DNA from: an uncultured Sutterella sp.
Lineage (GTDB): Bacteria; Pseudomonadota; Gammaproteobacteria; Burkholderiales; Burkholderiaceae_F
Reading direction: 5' to 3'
Length of the DNA: 64,000 bases
Assembly (NCBI GenBank): GCA_902388655.1
Contig: CABMQD010000001.1
Span: forward strand, 11,728 to 75,727
Shown: one piece after another, positions 937 through 29,968 of the stretch
How the letters are laid out: each line of letters begins with the position of its first letter
Numbering within the stretch: the stretch's first letter is position 1
Notes under the pieces: model-generated
Told to the model about the DNA's origin: nothing
Database searches by the model: none
The model's input: only the letters and a program-made list of their open reading frames with translations
Program-made: the position numbers and the translations under genes

Positions 937-2236
937 AATGAAAAACCTAAAACGTTTCGGATTGGCCAGACGCATCCTTGTCGGCTGGATGCTGCAAACG
1001 GTTTTGATTGTCACGCTTTTTTCCGTGGCCATGCATGAGTCCACAGAATTTATGGAAGATAATCTGCTCAGCGACATTCTCAAAGACGAAATGTCGATTC
1101 TCGTCAGTGAAATTGAAGCAGGCGAAGACTTTGTACTGCCCAATTCCATGCAGCTTTATGGCAACGCTCCTCAGCTTCCGGCAATTCCAGACAAATACGC
1201 GGCCTACCCGGACGGTTACCAAGAAATTGTTCAAGCCGATGACTCTTCGTTTTTATACAAAATGACCACCAACGGTCACTCGTATATCCTCGTCCGAGAC
1301 CAGTATGACTTTGAGCGCAGTGAACAAATTTTTAAGATTTTGATTGTCGGCTGTTCGACGTTGATTTTTATATTTTGCCTCTGCTTCGGCTATTGGTGGA
1401 TTCAAAAGAAAATCATGACGCCCATCACCGCGTTGTCGAGCGCGGTTCGAAAGATGGCGGAGTCGCAAAAATACACGCCGCTCAGTGGTGAGATTACTGA
1501 AGATGAAATCGGTGAACTGGCGAAAACCTGTGACCATGCGTTAAAAAGCTTTCACGAGGCGCTTTCCCGTGAGAAACTCTTTACCGCCGACATCAGCCAT
1601 GAACTCCGAACGCCGCTCACAGTTATTCAAACATCCGCGGAACTGATGCAGCTCTATCCCCTATCAGACAAACAGAGCGAACAAGTTGAGCGCATTCTCA
1701 AATCCTCAAAAGCCATCGAGGATCTGCTCTCGGTTTTCCTGCAACTGGCACGAGGCGGGGCGTTTGAGAAAAACGGTTCAACTGACCGTGTCTATGACAT
1801 CATTTCTGAAATCGCTAAAAATTGGGAGAATCAAGCCAACGCCAAACATATTGAATTAAGCGTACAAAGTCTGTCGACCTGTCCCGGTCATTACTCCCCC
1901 ATTCTCCTAGGCACAGTGGTCAACAACCTGCTTAAAAATTCCGTGCTCTACACCCAAAAGGGAGAAGTCATCGTCAGAGAACTGGAAGATGGCTTTGAAA
2001 TTATTGATACCGGCAGCGGCATTCCGGAAGCGATGCGGGAACGAATTTTCCAACCCTTTACAAGAGCCACTCAGAGAACACCGGGCAGCGGCATGGGTTT
2101 ATCCATTGCCAAACGAATCTGCGATCGCTTCGGCTGGAAACTCGAGTTATTGGATTCCGAAAAAGGCGCCCATTTTAAGGTCACTTTAATCACCGACAGG
2201 CCGATCTTGCCTATGGATAGGAGAGCCCAGCTTTAG
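929..2236 (+). CDS. Sensor histidine kinase (membrane-anchored; HisKA H-box HELRTPL plus HATPase_c)
   Basis: Two N-terminal TM segments, an H-box (SHELRTPLT), and N/G-box motifs (NLLKNS, DTGSGIP, GSGMGLSI). Overlaps the response-regulator stop, so the two are translationally coupled. Confidence 0.8.
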   Translation: MNKMKNLKRFGLARRILVGWMLQTVLIVTLFSVAMHESTEFMEDNLLSDILKDEMSILVSEIEAGEDFVLPNSMQLYGNAPQLPAIPDKYAAYPDGYQEIVQADDSSFLYKMTTNGHSYILVRDQYDFERSEQIFKILIVGCSTLIFIFCLCFGYWWIQKKIMTPITALSSAVRKMAESQKYTPLSGEITEDEIGELAKTCDHALKSFHEALSREKLFTADISHELRTPLTVIQTSAELMQLYPLSDKQSEQVERILKSSKAIEDLLSVFLQLARGGAFEKNGSTDRVYDIISEIAKNWENQANAKHIELSVQSLSTCPGHYSPILLGTVVNNLLKNSVLYTQKGEVIVRELEDGFEIIDTGSGIPEAMRERIFQPFTRATQRTPGSGMGLSIAKRICDRFGWKLELLDSEKGAHFKVTLITDRPILPMDRRAQL

Positions 2237-2266
2237 CGAAAAATCCTTTCTAACATACGATAATAA

Positions 2267-2602
2267 TTGATAACATTGAGACAATCTGCGCTGTTATTGA
2301 AAGGAAAATTTCTTATAACAAAGTCAACAGCTTCAACACAATTGCCCGAACAATTTGTTGAAAGGATTGAACTGCTCGGCGAACAGATTCGTCAAACGCG
2401 CTTGAGCCAGAACCTTTCAGTGGAACTGGTTGCCAAACGAGCGCATTGTTTGCCTCGAACCATGCGAAAAGTTCAAAAAGGCGATCTGTCGTTATCTGTC
2501 GGCACTTATTTGAAGGTGATCGCCGCATTGGAGCTCGATGACACTCTCGACAATATCCTTATTTGGATGTGGGCCAATTTCGATTGGGATTGGAGCCGCT
2601 AA
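2267..2602 (+). CDS. Small XRE-family helix-turn-helix transcriptional regulator (putative)
   Basis: HTH-like segment (LSQNLSVELVAKRAHCLPRTMRKVQKG). Short ORF and the start codon is uncertain. Confidence 0.45.
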   Translation: MITLRQSALLLKGKFLITKSTASTQLPEQFVERIELLGEQIRQTRLSQNLSVELVAKRAHCLPRTMRKVQKGDLSLSVGTYLKVIAALELDDTLDNILIWMWANFDWDWSR

Positions 2603-5398: not shown

Positions 5399-6196
5399 AT
5401 GGCTTTATTGACTGGTAAGAAATTACTCATCACCGGCATTTCTTCAAACCGCTCCATTGCCTACGGCATTGCCAAGGCCTGTAAAGAAGAAGGGGCCGAG
5501 CTCATCCTGACATACAACAATGAACGTTTCCGCGAACGTCTTGAACGTTTTGCCAATGATTTTGGAGCGGCAGGCGTGATTCAACTTAATGTCGCTGACG
5601 ATGACAGCATCGCTGCCGCGGCGGCTAAAGTTAAGGAAATTTGGTCTGACGGTTTTGACGGCTTTGTGCATTCAATCGCCTGGGCTCCCCGTGAAGCAAT
5701 CGAGGGTTCTTTCTTGGAAGGCCTGTCTCGTGACGGCTTCCTGACCGCCATTAATATTTCCGCTTACTCTTTTGCGGCGCTTGCAAAGGCGTTTTTGCCT
5801 CAATTGGAAGGTCACAACGCCTCTCTAGTCACACTCTCTTTCCTTGGCGCGGAAAAAGTGGTTCCCAACTACAACACCATGGGCGTTGCCAAGGCCGCTC
5901 TTGAAGCCGTGACTCGCTACATGGCCGCCGATTTAGGTCCCAAGGGCATCCGCGTGAACGCGCTCTCGAGCGGTCCGATCAGAACATTGGCCGCAAGCGG
6001 CATTAAGGACTTCACCAAGATGCTCGCTCACGCTCGCGATGTTTCGCCCTTGCGCGAAACGGTCACGATCGAAGATGTGGGTCGCTCCACGGCGTTCCTG
6101 CTCTCCGACTACGCCCGAGGCATCACCGCGGAAACGCTTTATGTGGATGCGGGCTTTCAGGCAATGGCCGGCCAAGTGCCCGCCCAAGCCGAATAA
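5399..6196 (+). CDS. fabI: Enoyl-[acyl-carrier-protein] reductase (NADH), FabI
   Basis: Classic FabI sequence (GKKLLITGISSNRSIAYGIAKA ... YNTMGVAKAALEA ... GPIRTLAASGI). Confidence 0.85.
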   Translation: MALLTGKKLLITGISSNRSIAYGIAKACKEEGAELILTYNNERFRERLERFANDFGAAGVIQLNVADDDSIAAAAAKVKEIWSDGFDGFVHSIAWAPREAIEGSFLEGLSRDGFLTAINISAYSFAALAKAFLPQLEGHNASLVTLSFLGAEKVVPNYNTMGVAKAALEAVTRYMAADLGPKGIRVNALSSGPIRTLAASGIKDFTKMLAHARDVSPLRETVTIEDVGRSTAFLLSDYARGITAETLYVDAGFQAMAGQVPAQAE

Positions 6197-21745: not shown

Positions 21746-22102
21746 CTAATCCATCCAAAATTTAGCGATAGGCAGGGCAACGTTGCCGTTATCGTACTCC
21801 TGCACTTCGTTACCGCAGTACAAAACAACCCCTTGAATTGGAGCTCCGGCATTGACCTGTTTAAACCATTCAATATTTTTGAAGTCAGTTTTGCTCACCT
21901 TATCTGAACTCTTAATCTCAATGGCCACTTTCCGACCACTCTCGTGTTCAAGCAACAAGTCAATCTCGTAGCGTTGATCGGCCCGTACGTGAAAAATACT
22001 CCAATCTCCCGCCAATTCGATATAAGGAATTAACTGCGTATAGACAAACGTTTTCACCAAATTACCGACAAAATCTGTCCCAGCCTTCCCACTATGCAAC
22101 AA
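21746..22102 (-). pseudogene. C-terminal fragment of a DUF4143/COG1373-family AAA ATPase (N-terminal ATPase part missing)
   Basis: 118 aa matching the typical C-terminus of DUF4143 ATPases (...YEIDLLLEHESGRKVAIEIKSSDKVSKTDFKNIEWF). An in-frame stop lies immediately upstream, and there is no Walker-motif region. Confidence 0.45.
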
Positions 22103-22252
22103 CCACGAAGTAAAAATCTATTGATAGCATACCAAAAACGCCAACATCCGGACAGAGTTCAACCTATCCAATGTTGGCGTTCAGAAGAGGCTAAATCGTT
22201 AGAACTATTCGAGAAAATCTTTTTCTCTCAACAATTCTTTCCGATTAACTTG

Positions 22253-23455
22253 TCATTGAGCGCGTTTTTCCAAGATTTCAATGGCGGGCAACACCTTACC
22301 TTCCAGGAATTCAAGGAACGCACCGCCACCGGTGGAAATGTAGGAAATACGATCAGCAATGCCAAATTTGCCCACGGCGGCCACCGTGTCACCACCGCCC
22401 GCAATGGAGAACGCGCCGGCTTCGGTTGCCTTGGCAATTGCCTCGGCCATCACTTCGGTACCATGAGAATAGGGTTCCATTTCAAACACGCCGACCGGAC
22501 CGTTCCAAACAATGGTGCCGGCCCTTTGCAAAATGTCGGCCAAAGCCTTCGCCGTTTCAGGCCCCACGTCCAAAATCATTTCATCATCTTGAACATCTTC
22601 AATGCGGCAAGTGCGATGTTCAGCTGTTTCTGAGAACTCCTTGGCAACCACAACGTCTGTGGGCAAGGGCAGCGTAGCGCCCTTTTGCTTTAATGTTTCC
22701 AAAATCTTCTTGCATTCATCGAGCAAATCGGCTTCGGCCAAAGACTTACCCACTTTGTAGCCAGCGGCCATCAGGAACGTATTAGCGATGCCGCCACCCA
22801 CAATCAGCTGATCAACTTTCTGAGCCAAGTTATTCAAAATTGTGAGCTTCGTGGAAACTTTCGAGCCGCCGACAATGGCGACGAGCGGATGCTTGGCTTC
22901 TTCCACCGCCTTGGTAAGCGCGTCAATTTCAGCGGCCATCAAGGGACCTGCGCAAACCACATCGGCGTATTGAGCCACGCCGTAAGTGGAGGCTTGAGCG
23001 CGGTGAGCGGTACCAAAAGCGTCATTGACAAACACGTCACAAAGCGCGCCGTACTTCTTCGAGAGCTCTTCCGTGCACTTCTTTTCACCAACGTTGCAGC
23101 GGCAGTTTTCAAGCATCACCACTTCACCCGGAGCGACTTCAAAACCGCCGTCCACCCAGTTGTCAATCAAACGAACCGGACATTGCAAGAGTTCAGACAT
23201 GCGCTGAGCGATCTTCACCAAGCTGTCAGCCGGCGTTTTTTCACCTTCCTTCGGACGCCCCAAGTGTGTCACCACCATCACTCGAGCGCTGGCGTCTCGG
23301 GCCATGCGGATGGCCGGGACGGAAGCCACCAAACGAGCTTCATTCGTGATATTGCCGTTTTCATCGCGCGGAGTATTCAAATCAGAACGGATAAAAACGC
23401 GTTTATCTTTCAAGGCACCGGCCTTGACCAATTGTTCGAGAGTTGTCACTCGCAT
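22253..23455 (-). CDS. pgk: Phosphoglycerate kinase
   Basis: 400 aa with a PGK-typical sequence throughout. Confidence 0.9.
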
Positions 23456-23501
23456 GGTGTCTTTCCCTTAAAAAGAAACAAGTTAATTTTTAAATTTTAA
23501 A

Positions 23502-26378
23502 TCATTGCAAAAGCACGGGTTCCGGTTCAAGTTCCACCCCAAACTTTGCCCGAACTTCATCGCGAATATGTTGGGCAAAAGCCAACAGTTCTTGACCGCC
23601 GGCCTGCCCCGCGTGATTGACCAAAACAAGAGCCTGCTTTTCGTAGGTTCCCGCCGCGCCATCACGCACGCCCTTTAATCCCGCCTGTTCAATGAGCCAG
23701 CCGGCAGCGAGTTTTTCACGACCGCCGGCGAGCGGATAATGAACAATGCTTGGGAATTGAGTTAAAAGCGCTTGGAATTGCTCACGGCTTACTATCGGAT
23801 TCTTAAAGAAAGAGCCGGCGCTAGGCACAAGCTTGGGATCCGGTAATTTACGGGTACGAATGCCGACCACAGCACTAAATATATCCTTAGGTGTCGGCTC
23901 TGCCCCTTCAGCAGCGACAATTGAGGCCAATTCTTTATAACTTAAATTGGGTTTCCAATTCGCGTCAAAGCCGAAAGTCACTGAAAGCACGATCAGGTTT
24001 TCACCTTCCTGAGTCTTAAAAAGACTGTGGCGGTAACCGAAATCACACTGCTCACCGGCAATCTCACGACAAGAGCCCGTCTGCGGATCGTAGACCTCAA
24101 CGCTTCTGACAAATTGAGACACCTCTGAGCCGTAAGCTCCGATATTTTGTACAATGGCGCCCCCTACCGTTCCGGGGATCAACGCCAGATTTTCCGGTCC
24201 GCCCCAACCCTGCGCGATAACGCGTTTGACAGTTTCGTGCCAACTTTCTCCGGCACCCACCGTCACCGTTCGCTCTGCCTCATTGACATCAAACCCTTCG
24301 ATTTCCATGTGAAGAACCAGGCGATCGACAAAGTCGGAAGTGATCAGAAGATTGGAACCGCCGCCTAACACAAAGGGGGCGAGATTGTTACGATGAGCCC
24401 AATCGAGGGCGAGTGCTAAATCTTCCGGACTCTTCACACGAGCAAAATTGCGAGCTGTTGCGCTGACCGCCATCGTGTTATAGGGCTTCAGATCCACCAA
24501 ACTTTCGATTAAAAGCACTTCTTTTATGCGATGAATGACGCTCTCAGCATCCAGTTGATTTTCACGCATGAGCTCTTCAATGGTGCCTTGGGGGATGAAT
24601 CGATCTTCAATCCCCATAACCAAGACGGGCTTTTGAATTCTCAACTCAGAAAGCACCTCCAGCACGCCGCTGCCGGCTCCGCCCGCTACGACACCATCTT
24701 CAATCGTGCAGAGAACATCATGGGTAGCGGCAGCCTCAATGATCATGTCTCGATCAAGAGGCTTTACAAAACGCATATCAATCAGCGTGGCATCCAATGT
24801 TTCAGCCACTTCGCGCATCCGGCTAACCATCAAACCAAAAGCTAAAATCGCGACACGCTGATTTTTCTTTTGACTCTGACGAACAACGCGAGCTTTACCG
24901 ACTTCAAGCGTCAGCAACTCATCATCCTGAGCCACGCCCGGCCCCTTTCCTCTCGGATATCTCACCGCCGCAGGCGTCTTCATCTTATAAGCCGTGGTGA
25001 GCATTTTGCGGCACTCGTTTTCATCCGAAGGGGCCATAACCGTCATATTCGGAATACTTCTCAAATAGGCGATATCGAAAACGCCCTGGTGCGTTTCCCC
25101 GTCGGCGCCTACAAGACCGCCTCGATCAATCGCAAACATAACAGGGAGATTCTGAATGGCCACGTCATGCAAAATCTGATCGTAGGCGCGTTGCGCAAAT
25201 GAAGAGTAAATCGCCACAACGGGTTTAATGCCGCTGGTGGCTAAGCCCGCCGCATAGGTAACGGCATGCTGCTCGGCAATAGCCACATCCCGGTATCGAT
25301 CCGGAAAGCGCTTTTCAAATTCCACCAACCCTGATCCTTCCCGCATCGCCGGCGTAATAGCGTAAAGCTTTTCGTCAGCTTCGGCCATATCGCAAACCCA
25401 GCGTGAAAATACTTCGGTGTAGGTCGGATGATTCGGATCCGGTTTTTTCTCAGTGATACCGACTTCAGGATCGAACTTGCCCACTCCGTGATAGAGCGTC
25501 GGATTTAGTTCCGCGGGCTCGTATCCCTTGCCCTTCTTTGTCACCACATGCAACACCATGGGACCGTCCAACGCCTGGATGTTGCGCAGAACCGTCACCA
25601 GATTTTCGATGTCATGACCATCCACCGGACCGTAGTAATTCAGGTCAAATGCGGAAAAAAGCGTTGAATGCGGAGCGACAAAATTAACCGTTCTCTGCTC
25701 CATGCTTTTGAAGAGATTCCAGAGTCTGGGCAAGGGCTTTAACGCGCGCTTGGAGAAATTTCTGGCGCTTGAAAACGCATGTCCTGAAACTAGTTTGGCC
25801 AAATGATGATTCAAGGCGCCGACTGAAGGAGAAATCGAGCAATCGTTGTCGTTGACAATGATCAGCAGCTTAATGCCGTCTTTGTAAGTCCCGGCATGGT
25901 TTAGCGCTTCAACAGCCATACCGCCCGTAAGCGCGCCGTCTCCGATCACCGCGATGTGCCAAGCGTCGTGATCACCGTTCATGGCATCGGCCACCGCCAT
26001 ACCGAGCGCGGCCGAAATCGAAGTGGAGCTGTGCGCCGTGCCAAACGCATCGTGTTCGCTTTCACCCCTCTTAGGGAAGCCCGATAAGCCCTTATACTGC
26101 CGCAACGTTTTGAATTGATCCATCCGGCCGGTGATCATCTTATGGGCATAGGCCTGATGCCCCACATCGAAAATAATCTTGTCTCGAGGCGAATTAAAAA
26201 CGTAGTGCAGGGCAACCGTCAGGTCGACGGCGCCAAGGCTGCTGGCTAAATGGCCGCCGGTTCTGGCAACCGACTCGACCATAAATTCGCGAATCTCACG
26301 AGCCAATGTCGGAAGCATCGGCACGGAAAGTTTTTTCAAATCCGTCGGAGAATGAATTCGATTTAATAAACGCATCAC
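23502..26378 (-). CDS. dxs: 1-deoxy-D-xylulose-5-phosphate synthase (~616 aa) fused in-frame to UDP-N-acetylenolpyruvoylglucosamine reductase MurB (~342 aa)
   Basis: N-terminal part is DXS (TPP-binding GDG, transketolase-like). The C-terminal part begins LKPYNTM... and matches E. coli MurB along its length (LENLALIPGTVGGAIVQNIGAYG, LPDPK..AGSFFKNP, LAAGWLIEQAGLKG). No stop codon occurs at the junction (...KEVLLIESLVDLKPYNT...). Confidence 0.75.
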   Translation of the reverse strand: MMRLLNRIHSPTDLKKLSVPMLPTLAREIREFMVESVARTGGHLASSLGAVDLTVALHYVFNSPRDKIIFDVGHQAYAHKMITGRMDQFKTLRQYKGLSGFPKRGESEHDAFGTAHSSTSISAALGMAVADAMNGDHDAWHIAVIGDGALTGGMAVEALNHAGTYKDGIKLLIIVNDNDCSISPSVGALNHHLAKLVSGHAFSSARNFSKRALKPLPRLWNLFKSMEQRTVNFVAPHSTLFSAFDLNYYGPVDGHDIENLVTVLRNIQALDGPMVLHVVTKKGKGYEPAELNPTLYHGVGKFDPEVGITEKKPDPNHPTYTEVFSRWVCDMAEADEKLYAITPAMREGSGLVEFEKRFPDRYRDVAIAEQHAVTYAAGLATSGIKPVVAIYSSFAQRAYDQILHDVAIQNLPVMFAIDRGGLVGADGETHQGVFDIAYLRSIPNMTVMAPSDENECRKMLTTAYKMKTPAAVRYPRGKGPGVAQDDELLTLEVGKARVVRQSQKKNQRVAILAFGLMVSRMREVAETLDATLIDMRFVKPLDRDMIIEAAATHDVLCTIEDGVVAGGAGSGVLEVLSELRIQKPVLVMGIEDRFIPQGTIEELMRENQLDAESVIHRIKEVLLIESLVDLKPYNTMAVSATARNFARVKSPEDLALALDWAHRNNLAPFVLGGGSNLLITSDFVDRLVLHMEIEGFDVNEAERTVTVGAGESWHETVKRVIAQGWGGPENLALIPGTVGGAIVQNIGAYGSEVSQFVRSVEVYDPQTGSCREIAGEQCDFGYRHSLFKTQEGENLIVLSVTFGFDANWKPNLSYKELASIVAAEGAEPTPKDIFSAVVGIRTRKLPDPKLVPSAGSFFKNPIVSREQFQALLTQFPSIVHYPLAGGREKLAAGWLIEQAGLKGVRDGAAGTYEKQALVLVNHAGQAGGQELLAFAQHIRDEVRAKFGVELEPEPVLLQ

Positions 26379-26386
26379 TTCTCCCT

Positions 26387-27292
26387 TTAGTGGTCGCGGC
26401 TCAAAATATATCGGGCGATTTCAGCCAACCGCACCGTTTTACCTTGATAGTTTTGAGCGAGCTGCTCAATTGTTTCCAATGCTTGCAGCGCCTTGTTGAT
26501 TTCGTTTTGAGCCATCGTCCGGGACTGCTCCAGACCTAAAATCGACACATAGGTCGGTTTATCCTCCGCGGCATCTTTACCCGCTGTCTTTCCCAACACC
26601 TTCGTATCAGCCGTCACGTCAAGAATGTCATCAATGACTTGGAAAGCCAAACCGATCGCATCGGCATATTGAATGATCTGAGCGATGAGAGCCACGGGCG
26701 GCATCTCTTTTGCAGCATAAAGCCCCATTAAAGCACTGGCTCGAATCATGGCGCCGGTCTTTAAACGGTGCATGAGTGTGAGCGTATCCAGATCCAGTTT
26801 TTGATGAACGGACAGTAAATCAACGGCCTGCCCGCCGCACATGCCCACCGATCCGGCCGCTGTGGATAAAAGCTTCACCAAGGTGGCGATTTGCTCACCG
26901 GAGAGCTTCGTCTGCGTTAATTCATAAAAAGCTTGTGCCTGAAGAGCGTCTCCTGTGAGCATGCCCATGGCCTCACCATACTTGCGGTGAGTGGTGAGCT
27001 TTCCGCGGCGAAGCGTGTCATTGTCCATGCAAGGCATGTCATCATGAACAAGTGAATAAGAATGGATATATTCCAGAGCCAAAGCGATGTGATCCAGCGC
27101 CCCTTCGTCGGCACCCACCAGTTCTCCGGAAGCATACGCAAGCAACGGACGAATACGCTTGCCGCCGTCAAGCACCGCGTAGCGCATCGCCTCGTGCAAC
27201 TTCCAAGGCAAACGATTATCCGGTGGCAAGGCTTTTTTTGCACATAACTCAAAATGCGCCGCGCGTTCCGCGCTCCAGCTCTTAAAGTCCAT
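26387..27292 (-). CDS. ispA: Farnesyl diphosphate synthase (geranyltranstransferase)
   Basis: FARM and SARM motifs (LVHDDMPCMDNDTLRRG; FQVIDDILD). The start is set at MDFKSW. Overlaps the xseB stop. Confidence 0.85.
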   Translation of the reverse strand: MDFKSWSAERAAHFELCAKKALPPDNRLPWKLHEAMRYAVLDGGKRIRPLLAYASGELVGADEGALDHIALALEYIHSYSLVHDDMPCMDNDTLRRGKLTTHRKYGEAMGMLTGDALQAQAFYELTQTKLSGEQIATLVKLLSTAAGSVGMCGGQAVDLLSVHQKLDLDTLTLMHRLKTGAMIRASALMGLYAAKEMPPVALIAQIIQYADAIGLAFQVIDDILDVTADTKVLGKTAGKDAAEDKPTYVSILGLEQSRTMAQNEINKALQALETIEQLAQNYQGKTVRLAEIARYILSRDH

Positions 27293-27542
27293 CAGGCATT
27301 CCTTTCTGACGAAGATCTGATTCCTGCAAAGCGACTTCAGTACCATCCTCAAGCTCACGAACCACTTCAGCGGCCTGATTTAAAAGGGTTTGACAACGCA
27401 ATGACAACTCTTTGCCTCGCTGATAAGCCTTCACGCTTTCCTCAAGCGTCAGCTCCCCTTTTCTCATGGTTTCGACAATCGCCTGCATTTCCTGCATGGC
27501 TTCTTCAAAAGTTAATTTCTGAACCGATTTCAACTGCGCCAT
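27282..27542 (-). CDS. xseB: Exodeoxyribonuclease VII small subunit
   Basis: 86 aa. Shows the XseB pattern (FEEAMQEMQAIVETMRKGELTLEESVKAYQRGKEL). Confidence 0.85.
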   Translation of the reverse strand: MAQLKSVQKLTFEEAMQEMQAIVETMRKGELTLEESVKAYQRGKELSLRCQTLLNQAAEVVRELEDGTEVALQESDLRQKGMPDGL

Positions 27543-27845
27543 CGCAACCTCTTCTTGCTATAACCTGTTTATTTTAGCGGTCAGACCGTCAAGATTGTAG
27601 GTTTAGATAATTTAGACCGACTCTTATCATCAACAGTTGCCCCCTAAAACAAGCATCCCTTTGAAAATCTGATGAAAATTAGTCTTGATCTCATAATTGA
27701 ATTATCAGATTATTAGGTTTTAGTCAGCAACATATGGGCAACCCGCTTCAATATTGCGCCTGAAGTATTAAGCAAACATTTCTCTGAGTATGTTGTGAAA
27801 TCAAGTCTTTCTTGATACTCTTTCCAACATAAAAGTGAGCGTATC

Positions 27846-28373
27846 GTGGAAAATCAAATTCTTTACTCCTCCTGGCGTTCCCCCTGTGGGGAACTCATCA
27901 TTGCCACCATTGACGGTGAGCTCGTGATGAGTGACTGGAAACAGGGGTGGCATCATGAAACGATTTTGAATCGTTTTAAACGCCTGACCGGCCTTCCTTG
28001 GGTCAAGGGAGAAAACGGCGTCATTGAAAAGACAATCTCGGAATTGAAAGAGTACTTCGCCGGTCAACGCCGTCAATTTGATCTACCGCTGCGGATGATC
28101 GGAAGCGCATTTCAAATCAAGGTCTGGAATGCGCTTTTGCAAATTCCCTATGGAGAACAATGCTCCTATGCGGATGTTGCCCATGCGATCCATAACCCCA
28201 AGGCAGTCAGAGCCGTCGGAGGTGCGGTCGGTCAAAATCCGTTCTCCATCATCATTCCCTGTCACCGAGTGGTGGGAGCCAACCGGTCACTCACCGGCTA
28301 CGGCGGAGGATACGAGGCTAAGAAATTTCTCTTAAGACTCGAAAATCCTCAGGCTGGATTGTTTTCCAATTAA
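27846..28373 (+). CDS. ogt: Methylated-DNA--protein-cysteine methyltransferase
   Basis: PCHRVV active-site motif. 175 aa. Confidence 0.85.
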
Positions 28374-29968
28374 TCTCCGAAAAGGTCTCGAGCAATTTTC
28401 ATCGGGCAGAATTTCGGACCGCACATCGAGCAAAAGTGCGTCTCACCTGCTCCGCTTCCGGACAATGTCTCCGAGCGCATCATTCGCGCTTTTTCAGGAT
28501 TTAACGACAACGCGTATTGATCAGTCCAGCGAAATTCAAAGCGCGCCAAACTCATAAGCGCATCCCAAAGCTGTGCGCCCGCCACACCTCTGGCAATATC
28601 GGCCGCGTGCGCGGCAATACGAAACGCGGCCATACCTTCTCGCACATCATCGGAATCCGGCAAGCCCAGGTGTTCCTTGGGTGTGACGTAGCAGAGCATG
28701 GCAGCCCCTTTGGAAGCAATTTCGGTCGCGCCAATCGCGGCCGTAATATGATCGTATCCTGCTCCGATATCGCAAACCAGCGGTCCCAGCGTATAAAACG
28801 GCGCCCCGTCGCACCAGGACGATTCAAGAAGCGCGTTTGCCTCAATCTCAGATTGCCGGATATGTCCCGGTCCTTCAATCATGACCTGGACGTCAAATTC
28901 GGCCGCTCGCCGATTCAATTCGGCAAGCGTCTTTAGTTCTGCCAATTGAGCCGCGTCGCTGCCGTCCATCACCGATCCAGGCCTCAAACCGTCTCCCAAT
29001 GACAAGGTGATGTCGTAGTGACGAGCGATTTCAAGAATCTCGTCAAAGTGTTCGTAGAGAAAATTTTCCTCTTCCTTGAGGTGCATCCACTGCGCCAAAA
29101 TGCCGCCTCCGCGGGAAACGATCCCACACAAACGATCGCGTGTCAGTTCTACATGACTGCGAAGAATGCCCGCATGAATCGTCATGTAGTCCACGCCTTG
29201 CTCCGCCTGCTGTTGCATCACACGGGCAAACAAATCCCAAGAGATCTCAGAAATATCCCCTGCGCGCTCCAACACCTCATACATGGGCACTGTTCCTACA
29301 GGCACAGGACTCTTACTGAGAATGTTTTTTCGAATCTCTGTGATATGTTTTCCAATTGACAAATCCATCACGGTATCGGCGCCATTGCGAACCGCCTCAA
29401 CCAGTTTGAAAATTTCTGTCTTCTTCCCATCGGCTCGGATGCTATCCGATGTACCGATATTGGCGTTGATTTTCGTTCGAAAGCGTTGACCGATCACCAT
29501 CGGCTGAGCTTGGGGATGCAAAAAATTAAGCGGCAGCACTGCGCGCCGGGCGGCGATTTCTTTTCGGACCGTCTCGGCGTCAATGCGCTCGCAACGGTTC
29601 AAAATCGCTTGCAACATCTTCTCCAGATGACTATTGCCGCAAGAGCGCACTTGCTCTTTGATTTGATCTAAAAACAGCCCTTCACAGACGGCCGCGTAAG
29701 CCATTTCGGCCGTAATTTCGCCTTTTTTAGCCAACGCGAGCTGCGTGGGCGAACCGGGTTTCGGTCGATGCCGTCTAAAAGAAATATTGTCTGAAAGGAA
29801 ATAAGTTGAATCGTGACGATAAACCGAAGGATTTTTCCCGCCGCCAAAAACACTCGGAGTATCTGTTTGAGGAATTCGTTTAAACGGGACTTTTTCTCCA
29901 AACTCGGTATTAAAAAACACTGTTTGTTCGGATGGAAAGGAGATGTTTTGCATGGTTGTCTCCGACAA
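28370..29968 (-). CDS. thiC: Phosphomethylpyrimidine synthase ThiC
   Basis: Radical-SAM ThiC family with a C-terminal CxxC...C cluster (CSMCGPKFC). At 532 aa it is shorter than E. coli ThiC. The start is TTG, or the internal ATG at MQNISFP. Confidence 0.85.

Follow-up and report, generated by a model that had tools for sequence, protein, structure and literature searches.

An in-frame fusion of dxs and murB maintained in a family of Sutterellaceae-type Burkholderiales

The stretch of DNA analysed here, 64,000 nucleotides (nt) from an uncultured Sutterella sp. (assembly GCA_902388655.1, contig CABMQD010000001.1) and hereafter called the window, carries on its minus strand the gene cluster xseB-ispA-dxs-murB, in which dxs and murB are joined into one gene (dxs::murB, Table 1). 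A single open reading frame (ORF) of 958 codons, 23502..26378, spans both genes, and the DNA can be read through their boundary without meeting a stop codon. DXS (1-deoxy-D-xylulose-5-phosphate synthase), the first enzyme on the way to isoprenoid precursors, converts pyruvate and glyceraldehyde 3-phosphate to 1-deoxy-D-xylulose 5-phosphate (DXP). MurB (UDP-N-acetylenolpyruvoylglucosamine reductase, or UDP-N-acetylmuramate dehydrogenase) acts in the synthesis of a cell-wall precursor. Both enzymes are antibiotic targets and, in most bacteria that possess them, essential. The original prediction for this DNA, made from its letters, held that DXS runs in frame into a full-length MurB. The ORF listing and the DNA readout confirm the open frame, and the coverage of the family profiles TIGR00204 and NF000755 confirms that both enzymes are complete.

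Table 1. Positions of dxs::murB, its parts and the neighbouring genes in the window (aa, amino acids; AF2, AlphaFold2).
Feature	Position	Strand	Remarks and evidence
dxs::murB fused gene	23502..26375	(-)	957 codons from the likely ATG, plus TGA stop; ORF listing, profile matches, 99%-identical 957-aa protein P0001
DXS module, aa 2-624 (DXP_synthase_N, Transket_pyr, Transketolase_C)	24507..26375	(-)	NCBIfam/Pfam, structure-sequence alignment
Junction, aa 623-628 L-I-E-S-L-V	24495..24512	(-)	DNA readout, alignment, AF2
MurB module, aa 625-958 + stop (FAD_binding_4, MurB_C)	23502..24506	(-)	NCBIfam/Pfam, alignment to 1mbb
pgk (phosphoglycerate kinase)	22253..23455	(-)	46 nt downstream of dxs::murB; neighbour kept in all fused loci
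ispA (farnesyl-diphosphate synthase family, 301 aa)	26387..27292	(-)	directly upstream, same operon; stop 11 nt before dxs ATG
xseB (exonuclease VII small subunit)	27282..27542	(-)	first gene of xseB-ispA-dxs::murB cluster; 11-nt overlap with ispA
ogt	27846-28373	(+)	divergent from xseB cluster

The mechanical ORF opens with a GTG at 26378, one codon upstream of an ATG at 26375 that is likely to be the true start. We prefer this ATG because it lies at a 5-nt spacing from a Shine-Dalgarno sequence (AGGGAG, 26381-26386) and because the resulting 957 aa match the length of P0001. The 958 codons first given for the gene hold for the mechanical frame, the likely product being one residue shorter. 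An exact look-up of the 958-aa product returned no record; the mechanical frame has an extra N-terminal GTG codon, and the closest match is 99% identical.

Are both halves of this protein complete enzymes? TIGR00204, the DXS equivalog profile, covers aa 7-622 with its positions 3-615 of 616 (816 bits, cut-off 466), and aa 8-620 align to residues 14-617 of E. coli DXS (structure 2o1s) at 713 bits. Alignment to 2o1s_A shows H49, D152, N181, E370, Y392, R398, D427, H431 and R478 (E. coli numbering) to be identical in the window protein. The GDG...N motif for thiamine diphosphate (ThDP) and Mg2+ (D152, N181) and the catalytic residues H49, E370, R398, R478, D427 and H431 moreover occupy invariant columns in an alignment of 13 representatives; the roles in ThDP/Mg2+ binding and catalysis are those given to these residues in the literature on 2o1s. 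Being full length and carrying the catalytic residues of the equivalog family, the module is predicted to have DXS activity.

The MurB half gives a similar picture. NF000755 (MurB) covers aa 625-957 with positions 5-335 of 343 (388 bits, cut-off 277), the domains PF01565 and PF02873 are both found, and the alignment to 1mbb_A shows identity at R159, Y190, R214, K217, S229, N233 and E325 (E. coli numbering). In the structural literature Arg159, Ser229 and Glu325 are catalytic, and Tyr190, Lys217 and Asn233 bind the substrate. In length, domains and catalytic residues the module agrees with the MurB equivalogs NF000755 and TIGR00179, and MurB activity is predicted for it. No second dxs or murB is present in the 64-kb window. 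Among 5.8 billion proteins, moreover, no full-length stand-alone MurB is more than 61% identical to the MurB half of the window protein, whereas the MurB modules of its fused relatives are 69-99% identical, which makes it less likely that the fused clade has a separate, closely related murB.

The two modules meet almost without a linker. The codons at the boundary read CAT CGC ATA AAA GAA GTG CTT TTA ATC GAA AGT TTG GTG GAT CTG AAG CCC TAT AAC ACG ATG, with no stop among them; the protein continues across the junction as ...HRIKEVLLIESLVDLKPYNTM..., and the peptide that spans it is ...EVLLIESLVDLK.... In plus-strand coordinates the junction falls at ~24495-24512, a little to the left of the position first proposed (about 24525-24545). 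The DXS part aligns with 2o1s to within three or four residues of the C-terminus of the latter, and for the MurB part the alignment to E. coli MurB (1mbb) begins at residue four or five of 1mbb; because the two alignments nearly abut, the effective linker amounts to 2-3 residues. In an AF2 model of the fusion, built on an alignment of 37 sequences (mean predicted local distance difference test score, pLDDT, 79; predicted template-modelling score, pTM, 0.70), the last DXS helix (611-623) is followed without a break by the first strand of MurB (624-629), at pLDDT 87-94. The model predicts a rigid junction and not a flexible or cleavable tether.

Could the cell also, or even mainly, produce free MurB, by internal initiation at TTG or GTG or by proteolysis, so that dxs and murB would functionally be two genes? 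The window holds TTG GTG exactly at the head of MurB, several relatives in the same fused clade (clade A, see below) have GTG there, and L001, a split variant described below, would need that GTG as its MurB start. Against this, L004-L007, L009 and L096 have GTT at the codon in question and L010 has GAG, and the codon before it is variable too (TTG, TTT, CTA, GAT, TAC, AAC); on these grounds we rejected the idea that MurB has a conserved internal start. Nor can a conserved Shine-Dalgarno sequence be seen there, and promoter-like or terminator-like matches in 21800-28600 are no commoner than in shuffled sequence, with none at the junction. The junction is also predicted by AF2 to be structured, which does not suit a flexible cleavable linker, and it differs in sequence from clade to clade. 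Production of free MurB as a second or main product is, in our judgement, distinctly unlikely. A programmed +1 frameshift at CTT-TTA-A, of the prfB kind with CUU slipping onto UAA, was considered as well, since L001 differs there by one T. We rejected it: members of clade A carry synonymous variants (CTG TTG ATT, CTT CTT GTT, CTT CTT ATT) and the motif is absent from the other fused clades, so that no nucleotide-level signal is maintained at the junction.

The single chain is not peculiar to the window. A search of the same 5.8 billion proteins for other full-length fusion homologues, as had been suggested, yielded ~48 clusters (90% identity) with ~1,500 member sequences, all 955-965 aa long, of the same five-domain architecture and 57-99% identical to the query. 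The assemblies behind these members are from ENA, NCBI, Logan and JGI, with contigs of up to 1.88 Mb (ERZ28753817 contig_18052); for one related fused contig the label reads human gut metagenome. The junction is read through in 13/13 aligned representatives, its linker differing in length by up to ~5 residues and in sequence between fused clades. At the DNA level six further fused loci are likewise in frame, and the order xseB-ispA-dxs::murB-pgk recurs in 7/7 fused loci from six different samples. P0001, a protein of 957 aa encoded on an independent contig and 99% identical to that of the window, has an identical junction.

These observations bear directly on the alternative raised in the original prediction, that the fusion is a sequencing or assembly artefact or a private loss of the stop codon, with separate dxs and murB genes in the real genome merged by a 1-nt indel. 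It is true that a difference of one nucleotide in a run of T toggles the state of the gene between L001 and its fused relatives, and that dxs and murB lie in different frames in unfused relatives. The in-frame junction nevertheless recurs in the ~48 clusters across all the sources named, it is identical in P0001, and the frame has been kept across saturated synonymous divergence. An artefact is therefore exceedingly improbable for the window, and the reading as a natural fusion is favoured by the same junction and synteny in dozens of independent assemblies. A change of the imagined kind does exist, in the reverse direction. L001 (P0049; ENA ERZ28613954 scaffold_8422) nests inside the fused clade in both the DXS and the MurB tree and is near-identical to its fused neighbours. 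At 5565-5615 it reads gcgcttTAAtt where these read gcgcttTTAAtt, with one T fewer in the run. The loss creates a TAA stop, leaving a DXS of 621 aa and a murB in another frame with only a GTG to start from and no visible Shine-Dalgarno sequence. The split in L001 is a fission of very recent date, or else an error in sequencing the homopolymer.

Between the window and its fused orthologues, the synonymous difference (pS) is 0.70-0.81 and saturated in both halves, and the non-synonymous difference (pN) is 0.08-0.27 for DXS and 0.21-0.38 for MurB. The frame has thus long been kept, and both halves are under purifying selection. Together with the same junction in independent and divergent genomes, this marks dxs::murB as a natural, maintained fusion, as opposed to an artefact or a pseudogene. 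Might one half still be a non-functional relic, with the real enzyme encoded elsewhere in the genome? Of this genome 64 kb are visible, and of the two halves MurB is the faster evolving (identity to L006 is 69% for MurB and 88% for DXS). However, all catalytic residues checked are conserved in both halves, both halves score above their equivalog cut-offs with pN far below pS, and no close stand-alone MurB was found among the 5.8 billion proteins. In unfused relatives, too, stand-alone MurB is less conserved than DXS (59-61% vs 70-82%). We regard a relic as very improbable.

To delimit the architecture, a junction profile made of the C-terminal DXS domain and the N-terminal MurB domain was compared with 1.84 billion representatives, at 50% identity, of ~15 billion proteins. 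Exactly one representative, P0011 (955 aa), matched in both halves; the other 149 best matches are stand-alone MurB proteins, matched from their N-termini. The DXS-MurB architecture thus appears to be confined to one lineage or family. Some MurB homologues among these matches exceed the usual ~340 aa: P0433 (470 aa), P0491 (488 aa, with MurB from residue 150), P0554 (476 aa) and P0469 (415 aa) may be other fusions or extensions of MurB, unrelated to DXS. A full-text literature search found no description of a dxs-murB fusion. The sequences are already in public databases, one cluster member being labelled merely '1-deoxy-D-xylulose-5-phosphate synthase' by its source and most carrying no name, and DXS-MurB is a previously undescribed domain architecture of two well-known enzymes.

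How did the two genes come together? It had been remarked that dxs and murB are normally unlinked. This holds for 79 of 80 murB loci from other bacteria, which were gathered by a profile search of genome contigs with the junction alignment, mostly match as generic MurB (pattern VQNIGAYG) and include many other genera of Burkholderiales (Roseateles, Acidovorax, Hydrogenophaga, Aquabacterium, Advenella). It does not hold for the present family, in which the two genes are always adjacent: dxs lies within 4 kb of murB in one of the 80 loci, and that sole case, an uncultured Duodenibacillus sp. (L025), is the only family member among the matches of this search. Close relatives of the window are not uniformly split, as would befit a chance merger here; many are fused, and in every unfused relative examined murB lies directly downstream of dxs. 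In Candidatus (Ca.) Aphodousia gallistercoris (GCA_018714185.1) the murB ATG stands in a different frame, 11 nt before the dxs stop (an 11-nt overlap); L092 reads TAATG (1-nt overlap), L091 reads TAA-C-GTG (1-nt gap), and in Duodenibacillus the gap is ~100 nt. Stop and start are therefore coupled, by overlap or within 1 nt, in 3/4 of the unfused relatives examined, and the pair is apparently translationally coupled. Since the genes are adjacent in the unfused relatives and unlinked at the loci of other bacteria, the tight dxs-murB pair is a trait of this family of Sutterellaceae-type Burkholderiales; with the genes so placed, a fusion takes no more than small changes at the boundary by which the stop is lost and the frames come together.

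Neighbour-joining (NJ) trees were computed for the DXS part, for the MurB part (rooted with Oxalobacteraceae MurB) and for the concatenation (100 bootstraps). All three give the same picture of three fused clades, each with 100% support, and unfused lineages interleaved among them: clade A comprises the window, P0002-P0042 and P0043/44, clade B P0045/46 and clade C P0050/51. Clade B groups with L091/P0098 (72%) and clade A with Aphodousia (65%), then P0058 (76%); everything except clade C forms one clade (98%). The dxs-murB boundary has changed state at least three times. By parsimony on the bootstrapped NJ tree, three independent fusions require 3 events and one fusion followed by fissions requires 4, the key nodes having 65-77% support. 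Each junction, furthermore, is similar to the N-terminus of the nearest unfused MurB: ...SLVDLK / MLANVDLK in clade A, ...EIREYVELK / MQVLEYVDLK in clade B and ...DIRENVSLK / ...VKENVVLK in clade C. The interleaving of the clades and this likeness make independent, recurrent fusion the better supported history. A gene pair that was coupled beforehand has thus probably fused more than once, node support for this history being moderate.

The ispA gene stands in the same position in L004-L010, and its start is most likely 27292, with the overlap with xseB seen in relatives, and not the GTG at 27358. Among the loci examined, the linkage dxs-murB-pgk occurs only in fused clades, the split variant L001 keeping it; pgk does not follow murB in the unfused Ca. 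Aphodousia, L091 and L092. In two Ca. Aphodousia loci murB is followed by an opposite-strand gene for a 994-aa autotransporter with an ESPR signal and an Autotransporter domain (L002 7958-10942 (-), L003 5854-8838 (-)), and in L092 a gene for an IS605-type OrfB/TnpB with a Cas12f1-like TNB domain (1237-2490 (-)) lies directly upstream of xseB. Just beyond ogt in the window, upstream of the xseB cluster, is a gene for ThiC, the radical-SAM (S-adenosylmethionine) thiamine pyrimidine synthase (28370-29968 (-)). DXS needs ThDP, and DXP is also a precursor of thiamine; histidine-biosynthesis genes occupy the position of ThiC in L005 and L006, so this part of the neighbourhood is not conserved. G+C falls to 0.41 at 27500-27999, against ~0.51 in the flanks, over the xseB-ogt intergenic region and the end of xseB as listed; the low-G+C intergenic stretch is presumably a shared promoter region. 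By Pgk, the nearest named relatives are 'Burkholderiaceae bacterium' metagenome-assembled genomes (84%) and Sutterella parvirubra (76%); the DXS of Ca. Aphodousia gallistercoris is 82% identical to that of the window.

Taken together, the evidence indicates that dxs::murB is very probably a real gene, kept in evolution, whose ~105 kDa product is bifunctional, with a complete DXS and a complete MurB end to end. Several points weigh against this. The ~105 kDa species and the retention of both activities in the fused state are predictions from sequence; the check for a second, divergent dxs or murB covers the 64-kb window of this genome; the TTG GTG at the junction may serve as an additional internal start for free MurB in this species; the AF2 inter-domain geometry is built on a shallow alignment; and the split version found in L001, a member of a fused clade, means that the split state is tolerated, unless it is a sequencing error.

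The fusion arose in situ: murB was already the next gene behind dxs, closing the xseB-ispA-dxs cluster, and small changes at the boundary dropped the stop and merged the frames. The product would be a single, practically linker-free bifunctional polypeptide, translated as one chain, and its synthesis would oblige DXS and MurB to be made 1:1 and to stay together, from an operon that also holds ispA. DXS enzymes are homodimers; if this state is kept, the assembly would be a DXS dimer with two MurB modules attached. Because the two reactions share no substrate, product or intermediate, we do not expect channelling. What, then, might the cell gain? A plausible benefit would lie in coordinating the entry into isoprenoid synthesis, which leads to the undecaprenyl-phosphate carrier and has ispA in the same operon, with the synthesis of UDP-N-acetylmuramic acid (UDP-MurNAc). 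A near-neutral fusion, eased by overlapping stop and start codons, may explain the data equally well. A stronger proposal is that DXS and MurB work physically together, as one unit that couples carrier supply to UDP-MurNAc synthesis, for example by bringing DXS into a cytoplasmic assembly of Mur enzymes or by letting one activity regulate the other. Three independent fusions, if that history holds, and stop-to-start coupling in most of the unfused relatives examined could point to it; we consider it conceivable but rather unlikely. If true, cell-envelope synthesis would have a control point that has not been recognised before.

When the methylerythritol phosphate (MEP) pathway is blocked, peptidoglycan assembly suffers by way of the lipid carrier (PMC6818789). 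A natural DXS-MurB chain is in this respect a 'Rosetta-stone' hint that this gut-associated family regulates MEP entry together with the making of the muramic-acid precursor, or even associates the two physically. The fusion would become mechanistically surprising only if the two functions proved to be truly coupled. With closely related fused and unfused states and at least three changes between them, the family offers a natural experiment on what a fusion of non-consecutive enzymes buys the cell. There is also a practical side: murB can look absent in metabolic reconstructions, since fused proteins are labelled only as DXS (at least one) or mostly left unnamed.

How does the fused protein compare with known systems? 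With stand-alone E. coli Dxs (2o1s) it shares fold, length, the ThDP/Mg2+ motif and catalytic residues of DXS, as well as the upstream partners xseB and ispA, but its DXS C-terminus continues directly into MurB instead of ending the chain. With stand-alone type I MurB (1mbb/2mbr of E. coli, 4jay of P. aeruginosa) it has in common full length, FAD_binding_4 and MurB_C, R159/S229/E325 and the substrate-binding residues; unlike these, its MurB is attached to the DXS C-terminus and has no conserved start codon. The murB and dxs genes of E. coli are unlinked. The closest comparison is with the unfused pairs of Ca. Aphodousia gallistercoris, Duodenibacillus, L091 and L092, which have the same gene order and operon context and orthologous enzymes (DXS 70-82%, MurB 59-61% identical), whereas they make two polypeptides, with murB in a different frame under an ATG or GTG of its own. 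The nearest analogue among described fusions is the MurB/C protein of Verrucomicrobium spinosum and other Verrucomicrobia, which is lineage-specific and monophyletic within particular lineages; in that system the fused gene complements E. coli murB and murC mutants (PMC4803751). The profile matches reveal no Mur ligase domain in the window protein, and we rejected its membership in that group. Both are lineage-specific fusions of MurB to another essential enzyme encoded next door. In Verrucomicrobia, however, MurB is joined on its other side to MurC, which follows it in the one pathway that they share, within the dcw (division and cell wall) cluster, whereas here MurB is the C-terminal module and its partner, DXS, belongs to a different pathway, that of MEP/isoprenoids, thiamine and pyridoxal phosphate.

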